DNA from: Promethearchaeia archaeon
GTDB taxonomy: Archaea > Asgardarchaeota > Lokiarchaeia > Sigyniarchaeales > SOKP01
DNA length: 12,772 bases
Reading direction: 5' to 3'
Assembly (NCBI GenBank): GCA_029856105.1
Contig: JAHQWH010000233.1
Span: 1-12,772, forward strand
In this document: piece after piece, positions 2,425 through 12,772 of the stretch
How the letters are laid out: each line of letters starts with the position of its first letter
Position numbering within the stretch: position 1 is the stretch's first letter
Position numbers and translations under genes: made by a program
The notes under the pieces: model-generated
Database searches by the model: none
Told to the model about the DNA's origin: nothing
What the model saw: the letters and a program-made list of their open reading frames with translations, nothing else

Positions 2425-4137
2425 TTATTTTCTCAGGCTTTTTTTATCAACTTTACCAACTGTAGTCAGTGGTAGTTCTTCAGTAAATTCGATTATTTTA
2501 GGGACTTCGTAAGGCGAACACATTTCCTTAGCAAATTTTGTTATATCCTCTCTCAATGCGTCTTCGTTTCCATCAAATTCATAACTCGGATCAATCTGGA
2601 TGAACGCTTTAACAATTTCAGATCCAGGACGATCGGGATTGGGTAAACCAATTGTAGCTACCATTCCAATAGCTGGATGTTTAGTCAAAGTGTCTTCCAA
2701 TTTAGCTGAAAATACTTTAAATCCTCCAACAATTATCATGTCTTTTGTACGATCGACTATTCGAATATAACCGTCCTCGTCCATAATTCCTACATCGCCA
2801 GTATGCATGTATCCATCTTTATCAATCGCTTTATTCGTTTCTTCGGGCTTGTTATAATATCCTTTCATTACCAAGGGTCCTTTTACACATATTTCTCCAG
2901 GTTCGTCTAGGGGGACTTCTTTATCAGTTTCAGGATCCACGATTTTGAGTTCTACATTTAAAAATGGTATACCAATAGTGCCTAATTTTTTTAACCCTAA
3001 CGAAGGATTCATTGTCGATACGGGAGAGGTCTCCGTCATACCGTAGAGTTCTAATAGTTTTCCTTTTCCAATAATACTTTCTAATTCTTCTTGAGATTCC
3101 TTTGGAAATGGAGCTGCAGCAGAAACACATGTTCCTAATTCTGAATGATCTATCTCTTTAAATTTTGGATTATTTATTAAAAGTTGATATAAAGAGGGTA
3201 CATTAACCAAGTTTGTTGGACGATATTTTTTCATGGCTTTAATCATATGGTTAGTATCACGAGGGTTAGGAATCAATATTTGGCTAAACCCCGAAGCTAC
3301 AGCTGCTTCAGTAACGGTTAATCCAGCAATATGAAACATTGGAAAGCCTGAACACAATACACCTTCTCCCCTTTTCCATTGAAGCCAAGATATAATGCAT
3401 TTTTGGTTTGAAACGCAATTTCTATGACTTAACATCGCTCCTTTTGGCGGTCCTGTAGTTCCACCAGTGTATTGAATCCATCCAATATCATCAGGAGTTA
3501 CTTTAGCATCAACAGGATCTGCAGAATAATTCGCTATAAGTTCCTTATGAAAATCAATAATTTTTATTCCTTCTAAAGGAGTTACCTTACCTTTTGGGAC
3601 TTTTCCTAACGCTTTACCTAGAACTTGCTTGATCTTTGGCAAAAAGCCGGCTACACTTGTAGTTAGTATTAATTTCAATTGTGGTATCTTTGAAGCAATT
3701 TTGACTATATGACCCGCAAATATCGCATCTAACGTCACTAAACCGACTTGCTTACCGCCTGTACCTAAATCGTTGAGTTGATATTGGATTTGAACCGCTG
3801 AAAGTAGCGGTGATACTCCAGATACAATACAACCTGCTCTCAATGTTCCCATTACGGTTATCATATATTCTGGTGTATTAGGTAGGCATATACCCACCAC
3901 ATCTCCTTTTTTAAATCCGTTTTCGATTAACATGTTTGCAAATTGATTCGCATAATTATCTAATTCTTTGAAAGTAACCTCTACTCCTAAAAATTCTAAC
4001 GCCATTTTATCAGCATATTCTACAAACGCGTCTTCACACATTTCAACGAACGTCATATTAAATTCTTTAGGATCAATATCTTCCAATCCAGAATCCCAGT
4101 TTTTCTTCCAAAATCTTGAACTATAAGGGCTTGACAT
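2425..4137 (-). CDS. long-chain fatty acid--CoA ligase / AMP-forming acyl-CoA synthetase (FadD-like), paralog 1
   Basis: QYTGGTTGPPKG, YGMTETSP, HTGDVG, DRTKDMIIVGGFKV, PLTTVGKVDK. ATG 4137 is preferred over TTG 4152 because MSSPY matches paralog 3 and the promoter spacing. Confidence 0.93.
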   Translation of the reverse strand: MSSPYSSRFWKKNWDSGLEDIDPKEFNMTFVEMCEDAFVEYADKMALEFLGVEVTFKELDNYANQFANMLIENGFKKGDVVGICLPNTPEYMITVMGTLRAGCIVSGVSPLLSAVQIQYQLNDLGTGGKQVGLVTLDAIFAGHIVKIASKIPQLKLILTTSVAGFLPKIKQVLGKALGKVPKGKVTPLEGIKIIDFHKELIANYSADPVDAKVTPDDIGWIQYTGGTTGPPKGAMLSHRNCVSNQKCIISWLQWKRGEGVLCSGFPMFHIAGLTVTEAAVASGFSQILIPNPRDTNHMIKAMKKYRPTNLVNVPSLYQLLINNPKFKEIDHSELGTCVSAAAPFPKESQEELESIIGKGKLLELYGMTETSPVSTMNPSLGLKKLGTIGIPFLNVELKIVDPETDKEVPLDEPGEICVKGPLVMKGYYNKPEETNKAIDKDGYMHTGDVGIMDEDGYIRIVDRTKDMIIVGGFKVFSAKLEDTLTKHPAIGMVATIGLPNPDRPGSEIVKAFIQIDPSYEFDGNEDALREDITKFAKEMCSPYEVPKIIEFTEELPLTTVGKVDKKSLRK

Positions 4138-4173
4138 TTTAATTTCACTCAAATAATTTCTTTTTTTCTTTAA

Positions 4174-4218
4174 AAAAATTGTTACTAAATAGTATTGATT
4201 CTTTTAAATATAAAGTTT
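4174..4218 (-). promoter_or_regulatory. BRE/TATA promoter, copy 1
   Basis: Minus strand AAACTTTATA (4209-4218), N9, ATCAA (4195-4199), then TAACAATTTTT (4174-4184); same layout upstream of all three ligases. Confidence 0.75.
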
Positions 4219-4264
4219 TAACTTTCTAAATCTTATTAAGATTCCTTTTAAAAGTGTATTATAG

Positions 4265-4287
4265 AAAAAAAAAAAATAAAAAAAATT
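4265..4287 (-). terminator. oligo-U terminator after ligase paralog 2
   Basis: Long A run on + (T run on the minus strand) directly after the stop codon, as in archaeal intrinsic terminators. Confidence 0.55.
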
Positions 4288-4288
4288 A

Positions 4289-5995
4289 TTACTTACGGAG
4301 AGATTTCTTATCGACCTTACCAACAACAGTCAGCGGTAGTTCTTTTACAATTTCAATTATTTTAGGAACTTCGTAAGGCGAACAGTTTTCTTTGGCAAAT
4401 GCTGTAATATCTTTCTTTAAAGCTTCCTCATTTCCATCGTAGTTATATTCAAGATCTAATTGTATAAACGCTTTAACGATTTCAGAACCTGGTCTTTCAG
4501 GGTTATCTACCCCTACAGTGGCAACCATTCCTATAGCAGGATGCTTCGTTAAGGAGTCTTCTAATTTGGCTGAAAAGACTTTGAATCCACCAACAATTAT
4601 CATATCTTTAGTTCTATCAACGATTTTCATATATCCATCTTCATCCATTACTCCTACATCTCCAGTATGCATAAAACCATCAGAGTCAATCGCTTTTTTT
4701 GTTTCCTCTGGTTTATTGTAATATCCTTTCATTACCATTGGTCCTTTTACGCAAATTTCTCCGGGTTCTCCTACAGGTACTTCCTTGCCCGTATTTGGAT
4801 CTACTAATTTTAATTCCAGATTGTTTAGAGGAAGACCTATACTTCCTAATTTTTTAACTCCTTTCGATGGATTACTTGCCGAGAGTGGAGATGTTTCAGT
4901 CATCCCATAAGCTTCTATTAATTTACCTTTCCCTACTATTGTTTCGAATTCTTTTTGAGATTCTTTTGGAAACGGTGCTGCTGCAGAAACGCAATACTTT
5001 AATTGCGAATGGTCCAACTCTTTAAACTTTGGATTTTTCATCAAAATCTGATATAAAGAAGGCACATTTGCTAAGACCGTTGGATTGTATTTAACCAATT
5101 CTTTTATAATGTGATCTGAATCACGTGGGTTTGGTATCAAAATCTGACTCCAACCCAGATAGACTACATTAAGGGTAGTAAAAGTTCCTGCGATATGGAA
5201 AAATGGAAACCCTGAAAGAGCTACACCTTCCCCTGGTTCCCAATTAAGCCATTTCTGATATATAACTATGTCAGAAACGATATTCTTATGGGTTAACATT
5301 GCTCCTTTTGGCGGTCCTGTAGTTCCACCCGTATATTGAATAAATGCAAAATCATCGGCGGTTATTTTTACGGTTGGTAATTCTTTTGAATAAGTGGGTA
5401 AGAGATCTTTATGGAAATCAATTATTGTTATTCCTTCTAAGGGAGTAACTTTTCCCTTAGGAATCTTACCAATTAATTTACCCAATACTTGTTTTATTTT
5501 CGGCAGGTAGCCTCCTACGCTAGTAGTTATTACTAATTTTAATTGTGGTAATTTTGAAACTATTTTAACTAATCTACCAGCAAAGATAGCATCTAAAGTT
5601 AATAACCCTACTTTATTTCCTCCTGTACCTAAATCATTCAATTGATATTGCATTTGAATATCTGAAAGAAGAGGTGAAACACCCGAAACAATACAGCCCG
5701 CCTTCAAAGTACCAATAACGCCTATTAAGTATTCAGGAGTATTTGGTAAATTTATACCGACTACATCACCTTTTTTAAAACCGTTTTCAATTAACATATT
5801 GGCGAATTGGCTTGAAGCCTCGTCTAAATCTCTATAGGTTAAAGTTATTCCTAAATAATCAAAAGCCATCTTTTCTGGAAATTCTTCCATAGTTCTTCGA
5901 ATGGCCTCGGGATAAGTTGTATTAAATTCATTAGGATCTAAATCTTTTACATAATCATCCCAGGATTTTTTCCAGAATTTATCTTTATACGACAT
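4289..5995 (-). CDS. long-chain fatty acid--CoA ligase (FadD-like), paralog 2
   Basis: Same AMP-binding motifs (QYTGGTTGPPKG, AYGMTETSP, PLTVVGKVDK). Start at ATG 5995 (MSYKDKFW) or ATG 6004; promoter spacing favours 5995. Confidence 0.93.
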   Translation of the reverse strand: MSYKDKFWKKSWDDYVKDLDPNEFNTTYPEAIRRTMEEFPEKMAFDYLGITLTYRDLDEASSQFANMLIENGFKKGDVVGINLPNTPEYLIGVIGTLKAGCIVSGVSPLLSDIQMQYQLNDLGTGGNKVGLLTLDAIFAGRLVKIVSKLPQLKLVITTSVGGYLPKIKQVLGKLIGKIPKGKVTPLEGITIIDFHKDLLPTYSKELPTVKITADDFAFIQYTGGTTGPPKGAMLTHKNIVSDIVIYQKWLNWEPGEGVALSGFPFFHIAGTFTTLNVVYLGWSQILIPNPRDSDHIIKELVKYNPTVLANVPSLYQILMKNPKFKELDHSQLKYCVSAAAPFPKESQKEFETIVGKGKLIEAYGMTETSPLSASNPSKGVKKLGSIGLPLNNLELKLVDPNTGKEVPVGEPGEICVKGPMVMKGYYNKPEETKKAIDSDGFMHTGDVGVMDEDGYMKIVDRTKDMIIVGGFKVFSAKLEDSLTKHPAIGMVATVGVDNPERPGSEIVKAFIQLDLEYNYDGNEEALKKDITAFAKENCSPYEVPKIIEIVKELPLTVVGKVDKKSLRK

Positions 5996-6034
5996 ATTTC
6001 TCATCTATTTCATATTATTTGTTTTTTATTTCGA

Positions 6035-6078
6035 AAAAATTGTTATAATTGTATTTGATGCATTATATTATAAAGTTT
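6035..6078 (-). promoter_or_regulatory. BRE/TATA promoter, copy 2
   Basis: AAACTTTATA (6069-6078), N9, ATCAA (6055-6059), TAACAATTTTT (6035-6045) on the minus strand. Confidence 0.75.
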
Positions 6079-6220
6079 AATTTTTTAGATATTTCATTTC
6101 GCAATTTTAGTAATTTCTAACAAATTCGTTCTCTTCTCTTCTTAGAACTCTTTTTAAATAAGTAGTTTATAAAATCGTAATTAATGACGAATAAAAATGA
6201 GAATAAGAAAAAAATGGATT

Positions 6221-7936
6221 TTATTGTTTCCTTAGAACTTTCTTATCGATTTTACCTATTACAGTTAGTGGTAATTCTTTAGCAAATTCGATTATTTTTG
6301 GGACTTCATATGGAGCACAATTCTCCTTAGCAAAAGCTGTAATATCCTCCTTTAATGCTTCCTCGTTTCCATCGTATTCAAAATCAGGATTTAATTGGAT
6401 GTGTGCCTTAACAATTTCCGAACCGGGACGATCAGGGTTAGGTAATCCAATTAAGGCGATCATTCCAATTGCAGGATGCTTGGCTAAAACATCTTCGATC
6501 TTTGCCGAAAATACTTTGAATCCACCGACAATGATCATATCTTTTGTACGATCGACAATTCGGACATAACCATCTTCGTCCATTATTCCTACATCGCCAC
6601 TGTGCATATACCCGTCTGAATCTATTGCATTTTTGGTTTCTTCAGGTTTATTGTAATAACCCTGCATTACTAATGGTCCTTTTACACAGATTTCCCCAGG
6701 TTCTCCTAATGGAACTTCCTTACCGGTTTCTGGATCGACAAGTTTTAATTCAACATTTAAGATAGGCATTCCCGCAGTACCCAATTTTTTCTCCCCCATA
6801 GAAGGGTTCATTGTTGCCACAGGTGATAATTCTGTCATTCCATAGAGCTCTAACAATTTTCCTTTACCCACTATGCTTTCTAATGCTTCTTGAGATTCTT
6901 TTGGAAATGGGGCTGCTGCAGAGATGCACGATACTACATTTGAGTGATCTAACCTTTTGAACTTTTTAAAATTAATCAGAATCTGGTATAGCGAAGGAAC
7001 ATTTACTAAAACGGTTGGTTTATATTTTTTCATCTCATTACAAATACCTAAAGCGTCTCTGGGGTTAGCTATAAGTATTTGCCCCCAACCAAATAATAAA
7101 GCTGATTCAGAAACTGTTAATCCCGCAATATGAAACATTGGAAATCCTGAACATAACATGCCTTTGCCCACTTCCCATTGAAGCCAAGATTTAATACTTA
7201 ACATAACTGAAGCACAGTTTCTATGACTCAACATCGCACCTTTAGGAGGGCCGGTTGTACCACCAGTATATTGAATCCAACCAATATCATCCGGAGATAT
7301 ATCAACTTTAGGTAGATCAGTAGAATATTTTGCCAAAACATCATCTTGGAAATGAAGGACGGTTTTTCCCTCTAATGGTGTGATTTCACCCGAGGGGATC
7401 TCCCTTACTGCTTTAATTTTTGCTTGATCCTCTTTAGAAAACGAACCAATTACGCTTGTTACTATTACTACTTTAAGTTGAGGTAATTTATCGGCAATTT
7501 TCTTTAACCTATGTTCAAAAATTGCATCAAGAGTGACTAATGCAACATTTTTCCCTCCTGTTCCAAGATCTTCTATTTGATAGTGCATTTGGACATCAGA
7601 CATTAGAGGGCTAACACCTGAAACAATGCATCCAGCTTTAAGCGTGCCTATAACTGAATATATATATTCTGGTGAATTCGGTAAATTTATCCCCACTGCA
7701 TCTCCCTTTTTATATCCATTTTCAATCAACATGTTAGCAAATTGATTAGAATACCGATCGACTTCACGATAAGTAATTTCTATACCTTGAAAAGCTAACG
7801 CCATATTATCAGGATAGTTTTCGAATATACTTCTTAGCATTTCAGGATAAGTAGTTTCAAATTCTTTTGGGTCAAGATCTGTTAGACCTGGATCCCAATT
7901 TTTTCGCCAAAATCTACTTTCGTACGGACTTGACAT
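6221..7936 (-). CDS. long-chain fatty acid--CoA ligase (FadD-like), paralog 3
   Basis: QYTGGTTGPPKG, LYGMTELSP, HSGDVG, PLTVIGKIDK. Confidence 0.93.
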   Translation of the reverse strand: MSSPYESRFWRKNWDPGLTDLDPKEFETTYPEMLRSIFENYPDNMALAFQGIEITYREVDRYSNQFANMLIENGYKKGDAVGINLPNSPEYIYSVIGTLKAGCIVSGVSPLMSDVQMHYQIEDLGTGGKNVALVTLDAIFEHRLKKIADKLPQLKVVIVTSVIGSFSKEDQAKIKAVREIPSGEITPLEGKTVLHFQDDVLAKYSTDLPKVDISPDDIGWIQYTGGTTGPPKGAMLSHRNCASVMLSIKSWLQWEVGKGMLCSGFPMFHIAGLTVSESALLFGWGQILIANPRDALGICNEMKKYKPTVLVNVPSLYQILINFKKFKRLDHSNVVSCISAAAPFPKESQEALESIVGKGKLLELYGMTELSPVATMNPSMGEKKLGTAGMPILNVELKLVDPETGKEVPLGEPGEICVKGPLVMQGYYNKPEETKNAIDSDGYMHSGDVGIMDEDGYVRIVDRTKDMIIVGGFKVFSAKIEDVLAKHPAIGMIALIGLPNPDRPGSEIVKAHIQLNPDFEYDGNEEALKEDITAFAKENCAPYEVPKIIEFAKELPLTVIGKIDKKVLRKQ

Positions 7937-8238: not shown

Positions 8239-8271
8239 TTTATATACCTCATATACATATTTCAGAAAATT
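8239..8271 (+). promoter_or_regulatory. TATA box plus putative operator ATATTTCAGAAAATT upstream of the RadA-like gene
   Basis: TTTATATA at 8239-8246; 15-mer at 8257-8271 matches 10633-10647 at 12/15 positions and sits at almost the same distance from the ATG. Confidence 0.45.
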
Positions 8272-8317: not shown

Positions 8318-9076
8318 ATGTCGTTTAATTCGGGGTTTAATTTTTATAGAAAAAACAAGAGAATTCCTTTAGTTTCGAGCGGAGATTCAACGCTAGACGA
8401 GTTATTGGGAGGAGCTGGCTTTCATAAAAACTTAGTTTATCTACTTTATGGCGATAAGAAAAAACTTGCGAACATTCTATTGACCACTGCGGTTATCGCT
8501 CAAAAATCTTTTAACAATGGAGGTTTAGGAGAAGAAATAAAAGTTGCTTTCATTGACGCAAATAACCGCTTTAACCCATATAACGTAAGCAAGTTTGCAG
8601 TTTCCCAAAATTTATTCCCTCGGAAAGTATTAGAGAACATTCTTATTGCCCGCGCGTTTACTTGGGATCAAATGGTAGAGCTTTTAGAAAATCGCCTCTC
8701 TAAGCTTGAGCATGTCAAAGTTGTTTTAATTTCTGGTATTACTACATTGTTTCAGAGTTACGAAAAGCAGATGTTTGAGGATTTACTGAGAGCTATTAAC
8801 GGGATTAAAACGATTCTCTCTAAAACAAGACCACTCATCGTTCTAACTGCCCCCCTAAACGAATATTCTCTCTATAGACCTAATGGCGGAAAAATTCTCT
8901 CCCACTTCGGAAGTGCATTAGCATTGATAAACGAAGACGAGCGATATACAGAATATGTTCTAGTTCAACATCCTTTTTTGCCAGAAAACCGCCTTTTAAA
9001 ATGGAAGCCACGTGCTCCAAAAAAGAACTTAGCAAAGTCAATGAAAAATATGACGTTGGATTGCTGGTTTTCCTAA
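8318..9076 (+). CDS. inactivated RadA/RecA-fold ATPase (PolB2-associated type) with C-terminal PIP-box-like motif
   Basis: RadA-like SSGDSTLDELLGGAGF, VAFIDANNRFNPY, VLENILIARAFTWDQM; Walker A eroded (LYGDKKKLAN), Walker B Asp lost (VVLISG); no N-terminal HhH domain; ends NMTLDCWFS. Confidence 0.85.
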   Translation: MSFNSGFNFYRKNKRIPLVSSGDSTLDELLGGAGFHKNLVYLLYGDKKKLANILLTTAVIAQKSFNNGGLGEEIKVAFIDANNRFNPYNVSKFAVSQNLFPRKVLENILIARAFTWDQMVELLENRLSKLEHVKVVLISGITTLFQSYEKQMFEDLLRAINGIKTILSKTRPLIVLTAPLNEYSLYRPNGGKILSHFGSALALINEDERYTEYVLVQHPFLPENRLLKWKPRAPKKNLAKSMKNMTLDCWFS

Positions 9077-9102: not shown

Positions 9103-9507
9103 TTATTTCTTTTTGTATAAATTTGGATTCTTTTTTTCAAGAGTCAAAGGATCGCCACCAAATTGAATTTTTCGTCCTTTATAATAAAGGTCTGATTTCT
9201 TCTCACAAATTTCATTCCACTTAACAATGCCATGCTTCTTTATCATAAGCAAGTTGTAAATTTTTGAATTGTGAGGTAAGAAAATTTCAAAATTTACGAT
9301 CGGCTGTAATTTCTCGCAAGGAAAATCTTCACATTCGTAGCAGAATTTATATCCCTTGCTCGTTACGCATTCAAACGTTTTACATACAGGGAAATCTTTT
9401 ATTTGACCATTCTGCTCCCGGCAACCTTTACACTTATAAACCTTTACTCCCGGGCATCTTTTACAATATATCCCACAAGGGGCGTGCTCCTTTAAATATA
9501 CACTCAT
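9103..9507 (-). CDS. Cys-rich metal-binding protein, DUF3795-like
   Basis: APCGIYCKRC, CKGCR, CKTFEC, FCYECEDFPCEKL pattern. Start uncertain (TTG 9543, ATG 9528 or ATG 9507); ATG 9507 has an SD-like AGGT upstream. Confidence 0.75.
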   Translation of the reverse strand: MSVYLKEHAPCGIYCKRCPGVKVYKCKGCREQNGQIKDFPVCKTFECVTSKGYKFCYECEDFPCEKLQPIVNFEIFLPHNSKIYNLLMIKKHGIVKWNEICEKKSDLYYKGRKIQFGGDPLTLEKKNPNLYKKK

Positions 9508-9555
9508 ATAACAATACCTATTACTCATTTTATTTTTTATCAAAAATAATTTTAT

Positions 9556-10527
9556 TTATTTTATCCCTAAAAGCCTAGCAGCATTTTCGTAGAGCCATTT
9601 TCTTTTAACTTCTTCTTTAAGAGGTAAGTCCATAACGCCATCAGCTAATTGTTTTATTGACATTCCCATAAAAAGCCAAGTTGATCCAAATAGAACTTTA
9701 TCTTGAAGAACTGAATTACCGAAATGAATAAGTTGCTCCCATCCCGTTCCTTTCATACCTATATACTTAGGAATGTAAGATGCAATATCGATATATATGT
9801 TAGGATTTCGCCAAGCAACAGCTACTAATTCGTTTACCCAAGGCCATCCGCCATGTCCCGCAATAATCTTCAATTCAGGAAAATCCTGAGCGACAATATC
9901 TAAGTAGATTGGTCTTTCAACCTCCATATTATTAGTGGAATAATTTATAGAAAGGTGAAACCAAATAGGGATGTCAAGTTCCACGCATGTGGAATAAATT
10001 GGATACATTTTCGCATGATGGGGCGGTATTCCAAACATAAACGGTCTAACAGCTACGCCTCTAAGTCCTAAATCGTAAGATCTTCTTATCTCTCTTACGG
10101 CTTTCATTCGTTTTAAAGGATCAATGCCTGCAAATCCTACGAATTTGTCAGGGTGTTTTTTAACAATATCGGCATAATAGTCGTTTGGAAGCCCAGCAAT
10201 GCCACTCGGCGTTTCTTCGTCAAGATTAAAAATAACAGCTTTTTCAACGCCCATCGTGTCGAGCAGTTTGACAAATTCATCTGTAGTTGACGTCATTTTT
10301 TTTATATTTGGCAAAAAAGGTTTAATCGCATTTCTGAGTTCAGCTGTATTCATTGTTGTTTTCATAACATAAAGTTCTTCTGCCGTTATCCCAAGTAGAG
10401 GAGCAACTCGTGGACCAAAAATATCTTGAAGATATCTAGCCATCTGAGGAGGTAACGACACTAAAAGATCGATAAAGACTTCTTCAGTTGGCACATAACA
10501 AAGGGAATCAATTATCTTATATTTCAT
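9556..10527 (-). CDS. amidohydrolase_2 family TIM-barrel protein with atypical active site
   Basis: PDKFVGFAGIDP, PIWFH, FPELKIIAGHGGWPW, NIYIDIAS, KVLFGSTW, WLYENAARLLG. Confidence 0.88.
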   Translation of the reverse strand: MKYKIIDSLCYVPTEEVFIDLLVSLPPQMARYLQDIFGPRVAPLLGITAEELYVMKTTMNTAELRNAIKPFLPNIKKMTSTTDEFVKLLDTMGVEKAVIFNLDEETPSGIAGLPNDYYADIVKKHPDKFVGFAGIDPLKRMKAVREIRRSYDLGLRGVAVRPFMFGIPPHHAKMYPIYSTCVELDIPIWFHLSINYSTNNMEVERPIYLDIVAQDFPELKIIAGHGGWPWVNELVAVAWRNPNIYIDIASYIPKYIGMKGTGWEQLIHFGNSVLQDKVLFGSTWLFMGMSIKQLADGVMDLPLKEEVKRKWLYENAARLLGIK

Positions 10528-10561: not shown

Positions 10562-10647
10562 TAGAACGTTAATGTTCTATATATTGTTTTTTCGATAGAA
10601 AATTAGAAAATTTTCTAAGTATATTTTTTTTAATGTTTCAGAAGACT
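10562..10647. promoter_or_regulatory. divergent promoter region with two palindromes and the shared TTTCAGAA motif
   Basis: TAGAACgttaatGTTCTA (10562-10579), perfect TTAGAAAATTTTCTAA (10603-10618), ATGTTTCAGAAGACT (10633-10647). Confidence 0.5.
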
Positions 10648-10694: not shown

Positions 10695-10970
10695 ATGTGT
10701 GGTAGAACAGTACCAAGCTTTCGTCCTGCGCTTGAACACGAGATCGAAAGCTGGAAGGACTATAAAAGAGCGCTTAGGCCAGAAGATCAAAAAATATTTG
10801 ATAAATTAATGAACTTTGCGAGAATTCATGCCGATGCTGGCAGTTTAAGCGCTCGCCCTATGCTTTCAGAAATTCTTTTCATTTCGTTTGCGATTGAGCA
10901 AGAAAAGAAAATTGGGTTGTTGGAAAAAAAGATTATCAAAATAGAGGAAATAATTAAGGGAAAAGAGTAG
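10695..10970 (+). CDS. small alpha-helical PolB2-associated protein (arCOG07300-like)
   Basis: GRTVPSFR...WKDYKRALRPEDQKIFDKLM...ARIHADAG...EQEKKI resembles the small protein found next to archaeal polB2; ends 3 bp before the polymerase start. Confidence 0.8.
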   Translation: MCGRTVPSFRPALEHEIESWKDYKRALRPEDQKIFDKLMNFARIHADAGSLSARPMLSEILFISFAIEQEKKIGLLEKKIIKIEEIIKGKE

Positions 10971-10973
10971 AAG

Positions 10974-12772
10974 TTGGACTCACAGAATGTTTTTGACGGG
11001 TGGCTTTTAGATGTATCTACTTTTAGCGAAGGAGTTATCCTTTGGGTAAAAACCTCAAAAGAGCAGAAGGTAATAAAAATATACCAAGAATTCTGCCCTG
11101 AATTTTTTGCAGTGCCCAGAAATGAATTCGGTAACGACTTAAAGAGATCGAAATATATCCTTACTCAAAATCTAAATGTAAAAGAGGTGCGGATCTGTGA
11201 AAAGTATGCAAAACTGGAAGATCACGAAAAAACGAAAGTTCTTGGTGTCACTGTAACGAAACCCTCGGTATTTAAGAAAACAATAAAAGAAGTTGATAGA
11301 ATAGGACTTTTTATCTTGCATAATACGGATCTTCCGATTACTCAGATGTATTTCTACGTCAATGACATATTCCCTATGTCTTTCTGTCGTTTCAAAGTTA
11401 AAATTGAAAAGGGCAAAGATCAGAGAAGTAATATTTTACGCCTTATTTCTCTAGATTTACAAGATGACAACGAAAAGTTATTCTACGATTTGCCCCCACT
11501 AAAAGCCGTTTGGTTAGATGTAAAAATTCAGTACCAAGGGATAAGACCATATTATAACGATCCCATTTCTCATGCTGAAATCAGTATTGTTGAAAACGAC
11601 GAGAGCAATGTTCCACGAGCAGATGGATACATAAAACGAAAAATATTGATCGATAAAGCAGACGAAGCGGAAACCTTGAAGAGCATAAGCAAAGTAATCG
11701 AACATCTCGATCCTGATATAATTCTTACCCAAAATGGGGACGAATTTCTCCTTCCGTATTTAGTTACTCGGGCTTCAGAGAATCGAGTAACAAAAGATCT
11801 TTACCTTTCTCGGGATAAAAAGCCATTGGTGAACTGTCTTTTCGATCTTTCCGGTGGTTCAGATCATTATATGTCTTATGGTATAATAAGACGGCGTTCA
11901 AAGACTCAAGTCTATTTAACTGGCAGATTTCATTTGGACACAACAACATACGCCAGTCTCCATTTTACGGAAGGAAATATTCCAGGCGTTATTGAAGTCG
12001 CCCGTATATCGCGAATCTCGCTCCAAAGATTAAGCCGCATAACTATTGGAGGGGCACTCCAGTCGATTCAATTTTATAACGCTTATAAACTTGACCATTT
12101 AATTCCTCCATTCAAGAAAAATCCGGAAGGGTTCAATACTGGAATGGATCTAATTAGAAGCGATCGTGGAGGCCACATATTCGAACCGATCATTGGAGTT
12201 TTTGATCAAGTGGTGGAACTAGACTTTTCTTCTATGTATCCTTCTTTAATGGCAAACTTTAATATTTCTTCGGAAACCATTAATTGCAAGTGTTGTAAAG
12301 ACGACGGTACAGGTGTAAAAGTTCCAGGATTGGACTTTCATATTTGTTCAAAAAGACAAGGAATCATATCGAAATCAATAAGTCTGCCTTTATCAAAAAG
12401 ATTAAAGTACAAAGAGTATGTCCGCAAAACTGGGAACCTCCGCTATAAATTCACTGACATTGCTCTAAAATGGGTACTCGTAGTCAGTTTCGGGTATTTA
12501 GGGTTTAAAAATGCTCGTTTCGGAAAGATCGAAGCTCATCAAACGGTTTGTGCCTTTGCTCGTGAATTCCTTATGCGCTCTGCGGAGATAGCAGAAGAAT
12601 ATGGCTGCAAAATTATTCACGGTATTGTGGATTCTGTTTGGCTTAAAGACACAAAAAGTAGGACTCCCGAGGAGTTCGAAGTAGTAACTAAAAAAATTGC
12701 CGAAAAAATAACTGAACAAGTGGGTATTCCAATGAGCTGGGACGGAAGGTACAATTTTATCGTTTTTCTTCC
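10974..12772 (+). CDS. polB2: family B DNA polymerase, archaeal PolB2 group (3'-truncated by the window, at least 599 codons)
   Basis: Hand translation from TTG 10974 (MDSQNVFDGWLLDV...) shows no stop to the window end. Motifs: DRGGHIFEP, motif A ELDFSSMYPS (Asp codon 12222), motif B LKWVLVVSFGYLG (Lys codon 12468), motif C HGIVDSVW (from 12618); degenerate Exo motifs. Confidence 0.93.
   Translation, partial: MDSQNVFDGWLLDVSTFSEGVILWVKTSKEQKVIKIYQEFCPEFFAVPRNEFGNDLKRSKYILTQNLNVKEVRICEKYAKLEDHEKTKVLGVTVTKPSVFKKTIKEVDRIGLFILHNTDLPITQMYFYVNDIFPMSFCRFKVKIEKGKDQRSNILRLISLDLQDDNEKLFYDLPPLKAVWLDVKIQYQGIRPYYNDPISHAEISIVENDESNVPRADGYIKRKILIDKADEAETLKSISKVIEHLDPDIILTQNGDEFLLPYLVTRASENRVTKDLYLSRDKKPLVNCLFDLSGGSDHYMSYGIIRRRSKTQVYLTGRFHLDTTTYASLHFTEGNIPGVIEVARISRISLQRLSRITIGGALQSIQFYNAYKLDHLIPPFKKNPEGFNTGMDLIRSDRGGHIFEPIIGVFDQVVELDFSSMYPSLMANFNISSETINCKCCKDDGTGVKVPGLDFHICSKRQGIISKSISLPLSKRLKYKEYVRKTGNLRYKFTDIALKWVLVVSFGYLGFKNARFGKIEAHQTVCAFAREFLMRSAEIAEEYGCKIIHGIVDSVWLKDTKSRTPEEFEVVTKKIAEKITEQVGIPMSWDGRYNFIVFL

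Follow-up and report, generated by a model that had tools for sequence, protein, structure and literature searches.

A conserved PIP-like tail, predicted to dock on PCNA, in the ATPase-dead RadA paralog of an Asgard PolB2 locus

Results

An inactive RadA paralog is encoded upstream of PPB2 and PolB2

The window, by which we mean the whole 12,772-nucleotide stretch of DNA analysed here, is one entire contig (C233) of a 3.66 Mb genome with 31.9% GC in 238 contigs. A Ras-family GTPase gene (Pfam) at 868-1428, together with the Promethearchaeota and Lokiarchaeota names carried by homologs, identifies the organism as an Asgard archaeon. The genes of interest lie downstream:

8318-9076, plus strand: iRadA gene, encoding a 252-aa ATPase-dead RadA/Rad51 paralog that is the PolB2-associated subunit (assigned from PF08423, Foldseek and alignment with the genome's own RadA)
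9103-10527, minus strand: a DUF3795 gene and an amidohydrolase gene, between iRadA and PPB2
10695-10970, plus strand: PPB2, a 91-aa helical subunit whose N-terminal arm reads MCGRT where the family has MGRT
10974-12772, plus strand: PolB2, a family-B polymerase of which the first 599 codons are present before the contig end cuts it

The first-pass annotation had described the product of the first of these genes as an inactive RadA paralog, and the sequence and fold bear this out. The protein has a PF08423 (Rad51) match over residues 15-146 (Pfam, E = 1.5e-14) and in Pfam and NCBIfam scans falls far short of the thresholds set for the equivalog models of RadA, Rad51 and Dmc1. An AlphaFold2 model built with 46 homologs has a mean pLDDT of 91.4, and its best PDB matches in Foldseek are the ATPase cores of RAD51, DMC1 and RadA (TMq 0.70-0.77, E ~1e-16). 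Alignment with the genome's own RadA begins at residue 87 of the latter, leaving the paralog without an HhH domain. In the same alignment the Walker A loop is deleted (GD----KKK against GEYRTGKTQ) and the Walker B aspartate is replaced by serine (VVLISG against LIVVDS). Because the P-loop is missing and a serine stands at the Walker B aspartate, we regard the protein as an ATPase-dead RadA paralog that has kept the Rad51/RadA fold. Timinskas, Timinskas and Venclovas (2025, PMC11791011), who named both iRadA and PPB2, give an 87%-identical ortholog, TET04596.1, the name iRadA in their supplement. We conclude that the open reading frame at 8318-9076 is the iRadA of a PolB2-PPB2-iRadA mutasome.

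Pfam and NCBIfam scans returned no family for the 91-aa PPB2. We identified it by its N-terminal arm, by comparison with the PPB2 sequences in the PMC11791011 supplement, with which it has the W-x-D-Y-[KR]-R-A-L-R and ARxHADA blocks in common, and by the ortholog in L020, a near-identical related locus, which is recorded as PF26485 (DUF8156). The protein begins MCGRTVPSFRPA, and most clade orthologs start with MGRTVP; the extra cysteine within the otherwise conserved MGRT arm (10695-10709) is found here and in the closest relatives. This arm is modelled as extending to the PolB2-iRadA cleft.

PolB2 starts three bases past the PPB2 stop codon on the same strand. The sequence encoded by its 599 codons has 96% identity to the PolB2 of L020, which is complete at 800 aa. 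Motif C of the window's PolB2 is HGIVDS, that is, IVD instead of DxD with the first aspartate substituted, and the published supplement table gives the same IVD annotation for the PolB2 in the operon of the 87%-identical iRadA ortholog (PMC11791011).

The gene order is directly observed in many relatives. Among 81 related loci scanned (L020-L100, found from the closer ortholog set A2), 62 have all three genes on one strand in the order iRadA, PPB2, PolB2, the last two directly adjacent. Across these 62 loci the iRadA-to-PPB2 gap runs from 111 to 5008 bp, and in three of them gaps of about 111-130 bp resemble a compact iRadA-PPB2-PolB2 operon. This gap has the look of a hot spot where insertions break up the operon. 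In the window, two opposite-strand genes (9103-10527) part iRadA from PPB2-PolB2, so co-expression of the three is not certain.

Several further features of these loci deserve mention. The sequence TTTCAGAA occurs about 55-60 bp upstream of both iRadA (8257-8271) and PPB2 (10633-10647). Of 81 loci, 17 have the exact octamer at -54/-57 relative to iRadA, and of 59 loci, 5 have it at -55 to -59 relative to PPB2, compared with 0.9% of background 110-nt windows. Ahead of iRadA the nearest relatives carry TTTTAGAA; the octamer may be a shared promoter-proximal element. Farther upstream, three tandem acyl-CoA synthetase paralogs (571-575 aa) occupy 2425-7936 on the minus strand, where the near-identical relative L020 has only two. 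One related locus, L028 (DATKTW010000160.1), is labelled 'Candidatus Nanopelagicaceae bacterium' and has an iRadA-PPB2-PolB2 module 85-90% identical to those of Promethearchaeota; it is probably a mis-binned archaeal contig.

iRadA ends in a conserved, non-canonical PIP-like motif

The C-terminus of iRadA comprises a basic tether and a short motif of the kind found in PCNA-binding proteins:

8999-9046, plus strand: basic linker K228-K243, net charge +7, varying in length and sequence among orthologs, with lower AF2 pLDDT
9047-9070, plus strand: PIP-type motif N244-M-T-L-D-C-W-F251, with N replacing the canonical Q at position 1
9071-9076, plus strand: Ser252 and the TAA stop codon; most orthologs stop right at motif position 8

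The first-pass annotation had pointed to a PIP-box-like tail preceded by a basic linker. The linker, KWKPRAPKKNLAKSMK, is as it was described, with seven basic residues and no acidic ones. Bases 9047-9073, given there as the span of the tail, encode N244-M-T-L-D-C-W-F-S252 ahead of the stop codon at 9074-9076; the coordinates are correct, and the peptide quoted for them, NMTLDCWF, had left out the final serine.

Measured against the PIP consensus Q-x-x-[LIM]-x-x-[FYW]-[FYW], the tail has the aliphatic residue at position 4 (L247) and aromatic residues at positions 7 and 8 (W250 and F251). It also lies where such motifs are expected, in a flexible region or terminus: it makes up the last nine residues and follows a variable basic linker. 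In the AlphaFold2 model its pLDDT values are 71/63/57, compared with more than 90 in the core, and residues 247-251 form a short helix. Position 1 is Asn244 instead of glutamine, which makes the tail a non-canonical, PIP-like motif. We also considered a PIP degron and dropped that reading, as the tail lacks both a TD at positions 5-6 and a basic residue at +4.

A match of this kind could arise by chance and have no specific function. The loose pattern [QN]xx[LIMV]xx[FWY][FWYLIM] occurs within the last 14 residues of 35 of the 2973 open reading frames of at least 120 aa in this AT-rich genome (1.2%), so a lone match is weak evidence, and it is conservation among orthologs that lifts the tail above chance. 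That conservation is plain in the sequences. All but a few of 120 homologs (76-100% identity) end in KN[MT][TS][LI]DCW[FL], and 81 distinct Promethearchaeota orthologs give a tail of the form [KR]-N-x-T-[LI]-D-x-W-Φ. In these 81 sequences a lysine or arginine stands at position 0 and a hydrophobic residue at position 8, with asparagine at position 1 in 74, threonine at position 3 in 73, leucine or isoleucine at position 4 in all 81, aspartate at position 5 in all 81 and tryptophan at position 7 in 79. The near invariance of positions 1, 3, 4, 5 and 7 contradicts a chance origin, and the TLDxWF signature, for which the first-pass annotation had proposed aligning orthologs, is indeed conserved.

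The motif also persists in much more distant proteins. We took 67 full-length representatives of 50%-identity clusters (E <=1e-10; identities of 26-67% among those aligned) and found x-x-x-[LIMV]-[DE]-x-[FWY]-Φ no more than 25 residues from the C-terminus in 47 of them. L247 is at least 90% conserved in the 46-sequence alignment A1, in which identity falls to 26%, and the linker varies in length and sequence there but stays basic. This persistence of the motif beside a changing linker likewise speaks against coincidence, which we now hold to be highly improbable. Position 1 was never glutamine in the 81 clade orthologs, and in the 47 motif-keeping distant relatives it was asparagine in 19 and glutamine in three. 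Asparagine in place of glutamine is a stable feature of the lineage and not a one-off.

Related tails elsewhere in the genome

The same genome supplies several PCNA-client tails like that of iRadA. Its FEN1 ends in KKQVSLDNFFK, with the PIP tail QVSLDNFF, and comparable tails are present on PolD DP2 (QQQLSNFF), Nre (QRTIDNFL) and a Y-family polymerase (QTTLITYL).

PIP-like termini were also seen on proteins of other kinds. Each of two proteins with a DUF72 domain has a canonical PIP tail, GQTGLDKFLN (G000:C34:43415-44284, minus strand) and QQKRLSDYF (G000:C214:13323-14126, plus strand). DUF72 is enriched near polB2 and resembles UV-damage endonuclease (PMC11791011), and the tails suggest that these proteins are PCNA-linked repair enzymes. 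An OLD-family AAA/TOPRIM nuclease (G000:C14:9180-11231, minus strand) ends in QTKLYDFY, a deoxynucleoside-kinase-like protein (G000:C225:73783-74514, plus strand) in QKNLNNFM, and a DUF4130 protein (G000:C149:85-747, minus strand) in an N-type PIP-like tail, NRDLNEFL.

The tail is predicted to occupy the PIP site of the cognate PCNA

PCNA is encoded by one gene in this genome (L001:1495-2298, 267 aa). As the first-pass annotation had suggested, we modelled the peptide on this cognate clamp, co-folding PCNA (a 40-row alignment, A3) with residues 209-252 of the iRadA alignment. The pair scored 0.63, with the three controls at 0.00-0.01 (the best at 0.01), a result that demonstrates likeness to the many solved PIP-PCNA complexes and not binding of this pair. 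The mark used for such co-folds is reached by 58 of 80 solved complexes and by 2 of 110 mismatched pairs, and the pass obtained here may reflect the abundance of solved PIP-PCNA structures more than the pair itself. At least 67% of contacts recur between runs, and the pLDDT of the partner is at least 48 (about 50).

In the confident part of the modelled interface, iRadA residues 240-252 pack against PCNA residues 41, 44-48, 128-135, 231-232 and 248-255. These residues form the hydrophobic cleft, the interdomain connecting loop and the C-terminal strand, that is, the canonical PIP site. L247 and W250 occupy the pocket, and N244 sits beside PCNA residues 250-252.

Published measurements on PCNA motifs bear on this reading. 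Glutamine is missing from position 1 in 34% of 77 experimentally confirmed PCNA motifs, and a Q-to-A change at this position of the p21 PIP caused a 50-fold drop (PMC6881253). The asparagine of iRadA may weaken binding. Positively charged flanks can increase the affinity of PIP motifs for PCNA by orders of magnitude, and the +7 linker of iRadA agrees with such a gain (PMC6881253). The single PCNA itself carries a strongly acidic C-terminal extension (…EEADFDDDDDMDEF) right after the PIP-contacting strand, which could pair with the basic linkers of PCNA clients.

The tail might instead dock on another hub, such as RPA, PolD, a checkpoint clamp-like factor or a damage-response regulator, and merely resemble a PIP box. 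PIP-like motifs do overlap other classes of short motif, the definitions of PCNA motifs are loose (PMC6881253), and the clade-wide change from glutamine to asparagine could mean a different pocket. Against this, the only PCNA of the genome accepts the tail at the canonical site in our model, and haloarchaeal iRadA orthologs have Q-type versions of a T-T-L-x-x-W motif that have been modelled on PCNA (PMC11791011). We consider docking on a different hub quite unlikely.

A second alternative is that this conserved, hydrophobic tail serves as an interface within the mutasome itself, plugging into PolB2, PPB2 or another iRadA in the manner of a BRC or oligomerisation motif. RadA-family proteins bind neighbouring protomers by short hydrophobic motifs, and the confidence of the tail in the monomer model (57-71) is moderate and not very low. 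AlphaFold models in which PolB2 binds iRadA via a RadA-oligomerisation-like motif (PMC11791011) bear on both sides of the question, as a precedent for such a contact and as a point against its being made by the tail. Some of the published mutasome models also place the iRadA C-terminus so that PCNA could be bound (PMC11791011). Moreover, the tail shares its x-x-x-L-D-x-W-F spacing, its location at the terminus and its basic flank with the genome's FEN1, PolD and Nre PIP tails, and in the co-fold residues 240-252 occupy the PIP site, with the controls scoring 0.00-0.01. An internal role for the tail thus appears unlikely.

Taken together, the conservation of the tail and its modelled fit make it likely that the iRadA tail is a PCNA-interacting motif of the PIP type on a mutasome subunit, a reading that is well supported in silico.

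PolB2 of the clade carries a PIP-like motif of its own

The window's PolB2 ends with the contig at codon 599, and the remainder was found on no other contig of the assembly. We therefore read PolB2 tails from relatives that are up to 96% identical. In the 49 anchored, complete PolB2 sequences (L020-L100), the C-terminus is a canonical PIP, typically QKDLSCFI, with glutamine at position 1 in 49 of 49, leucine, methionine or isoleucine at position 4 and phenylalanine or tyrosine at position 7. The residues just ahead of it vary among the 49 orthologs. The three closest relatives end in …SIQKDLLCF, one residue short of position 8, as in this feature:

L020:13036-13056: PolB2 C-terminus of the near-identical relative, PIP-like QKDLLCF

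The first-pass annotation had cast iRadA as the clamp-docking adaptor for PolB2. The conserved tail and its predicted docking on PCNA agree with a docking role, but since PolB2 of this clade has a conserved canonical PIP too, iRadA would be a second clamp contact and not the only adaptor. The complex probably contacts the clamp at two points, iRadA being one of them.

A cysteine stands at motif position 6 in both tails, in 51 of 81 iRadA sequences (LDCWF; Cys249, window 9062-9064) and in 40 of 49 PolB2 sequences (LSCFI). It is absent from the other PIP tails that we found in the genome on FEN1, PolD, Nre and the DUF72 proteins.

A proposed model for clamp attachment

We propose that iRadA, a PPB2 trimer and PolB2 form an archaeal translesion mutasome, an assembly taken from the published models. 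The last nine residues of iRadA would act as a short linear motif of the PIP type, carried on a tether that is flexible and strongly basic. On one PCNA protomer, L247, W250 and F251 would enter the hydrophobic pocket that lies beneath the interdomain connecting loop, N244 would fill the Q-pocket beside the PCNA C-terminal strand, and the basic linker would contribute electrostatic attraction to the acidic PCNA surface. At a damaged primer end, these contacts may keep the mutasome attached to homotrimeric PCNA, the sliding clamp. With the canonical PIP of PolB2 (QKDLSCFI-type), the complex would probably have two clamp contacts.

More tentatively, the Promethearchaeota mutasome could be tethered to one PCNA ring by two tails, a Q-type tail on PolB2 and a probably weaker N-type tail on iRadA, such that iRadA parks the complex in stand-by and the PolB2 tail engages for synthesis. 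We regard this division of labour as possible but rather doubtful. If true, it would amount to a built-in tool-belt or polymerase-switch arrangement, to which the shared cysteine at position 6 might add a common, possibly redox-sensitive feature.

Discussion

What the Asgard clade adds to the published picture

The first-pass annotation had inferred a clamp-docking role for the dead RadA fold. Such a role had been reported and modelled before: a clamp tail on the iRadA family is an already published, purely computational proposal (PMC11791011). That study modelled a heteropentamer of PolB2, three PPB2 and iRadA in 40 species. In its account, clamp motifs (for PCNA, or for the beta-clamp in bacteria) are commoner at the C-terminus of iRadA than in PolB2 and "rarely" occur in both. 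It also modelled five PCNA:iRadA pairs, one of them from a Lokiarchaeota MAG with the Q-type tail QKSLDTFMR (PMC11791011). In a full-text literature search, 'iRadA' in this sense appeared only in that 2025 in silico paper and one review, with no experimental follow-up, and the route by which the PolB2 holoenzyme reaches the replication fork is known solely from models.

The clade studied here went unflagged by that screen. TET04596.1, which ends in KNMTLDCWF, belongs to the published set of modelled complexes, and the clamp-motif columns for its operon are empty in the data table for both PolB2 and iRadA (PMC11791011). We checked our reading of these columns against haloarchaeal rows such as QTTLAFWM 194 28 -1.8. 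The PolB1-derived profile used in that study missed the iRadA and PolB2 motifs of this clade, and its authors had warned that weak motifs might be missed (PMC11791011). Three points are new here: a clade that the published screen did not flag, an N-type position 1 throughout that clade, and a canonical PIP on PolB2 as well. They leave the published picture unchanged, extending and slightly correcting it, and they imply that clamp motifs on both subunits may be commoner than the screen suggested. The window provides a well-conserved Asgard example of the putative iRadA clamp tail, typically N-type in this lineage.

Comparison with known systems

The protein encoded in the window resembles the published iRadA family (PMC11791011) in its dead RadA fold, in the iRadA-PPB2-PolB2 gene order and in having a predicted C-terminal clamp-binding motif. 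It differs in having asparagine, not glutamine, at motif position 1. The clade has clamp tails on both PolB2 and iRadA, a combination that the earlier work calls rare, and the operon in the window, unlike the published one, is split by two opposite-strand genes (PMC11791011). Within the same family, the haloarchaeal iRadA motifs (QTTLAFWM, QTTLTFWK) have the x-T-L-x-x-W-Φ form seen in the window and were modelled on PCNA (PMC11791011). They are, however, Q-type and lie 25-29 residues from the C-terminus, whereas the N-type motif described here is at the very end.

The closest match outside the family is archaeal FEN1 (Pyrococcus furiosus, 1b43; Pyrococcus horikoshii, 1mc8), which like iRadA has an extreme C-terminal x-x-T-L-[DE]-x-W-F after a basic stretch. 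The first-pass annotation had likened the tail to the QxTLxxWF ends of these nucleases with N in place of Q, and the comparison is apt: Pyrococcus FEN1 (QSTLESWF) and the iRadA tail have T3, L4, W7 and F8 in common, and position 5 is acidic in both. The two differ in the residue at position 1, asparagine in iRadA and glutamine in FEN1, and in the host protein, which is a recombinase-fold accessory subunit in the one case and a nuclease in the other.

In bacteria, the ImuA'-ImuB-DnaE2 system brings together three elements: an error-prone polymerase, an accessory protein of RecA fold and a motif that binds the clamp. Pol V (UmuD'2C-RecA) combines these elements too (PMC11791011), and both bacterial mutasomes resemble the iRadA system in this respect, as a functional analogy only. 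The published account of the PolB2 mutasome draws its parallel to Pol V and leaves ImuA and ImuB unmentioned (PMC11791011). The polymerases belong to families C and Y in the bacterial mutasomes and to family B in PolB2, and the clamp is the beta clamp in the former and PCNA in the latter. As an analogy of function, the comparison of ImuA and ImuB with iRadA made in the first-pass annotation appears reasonable.
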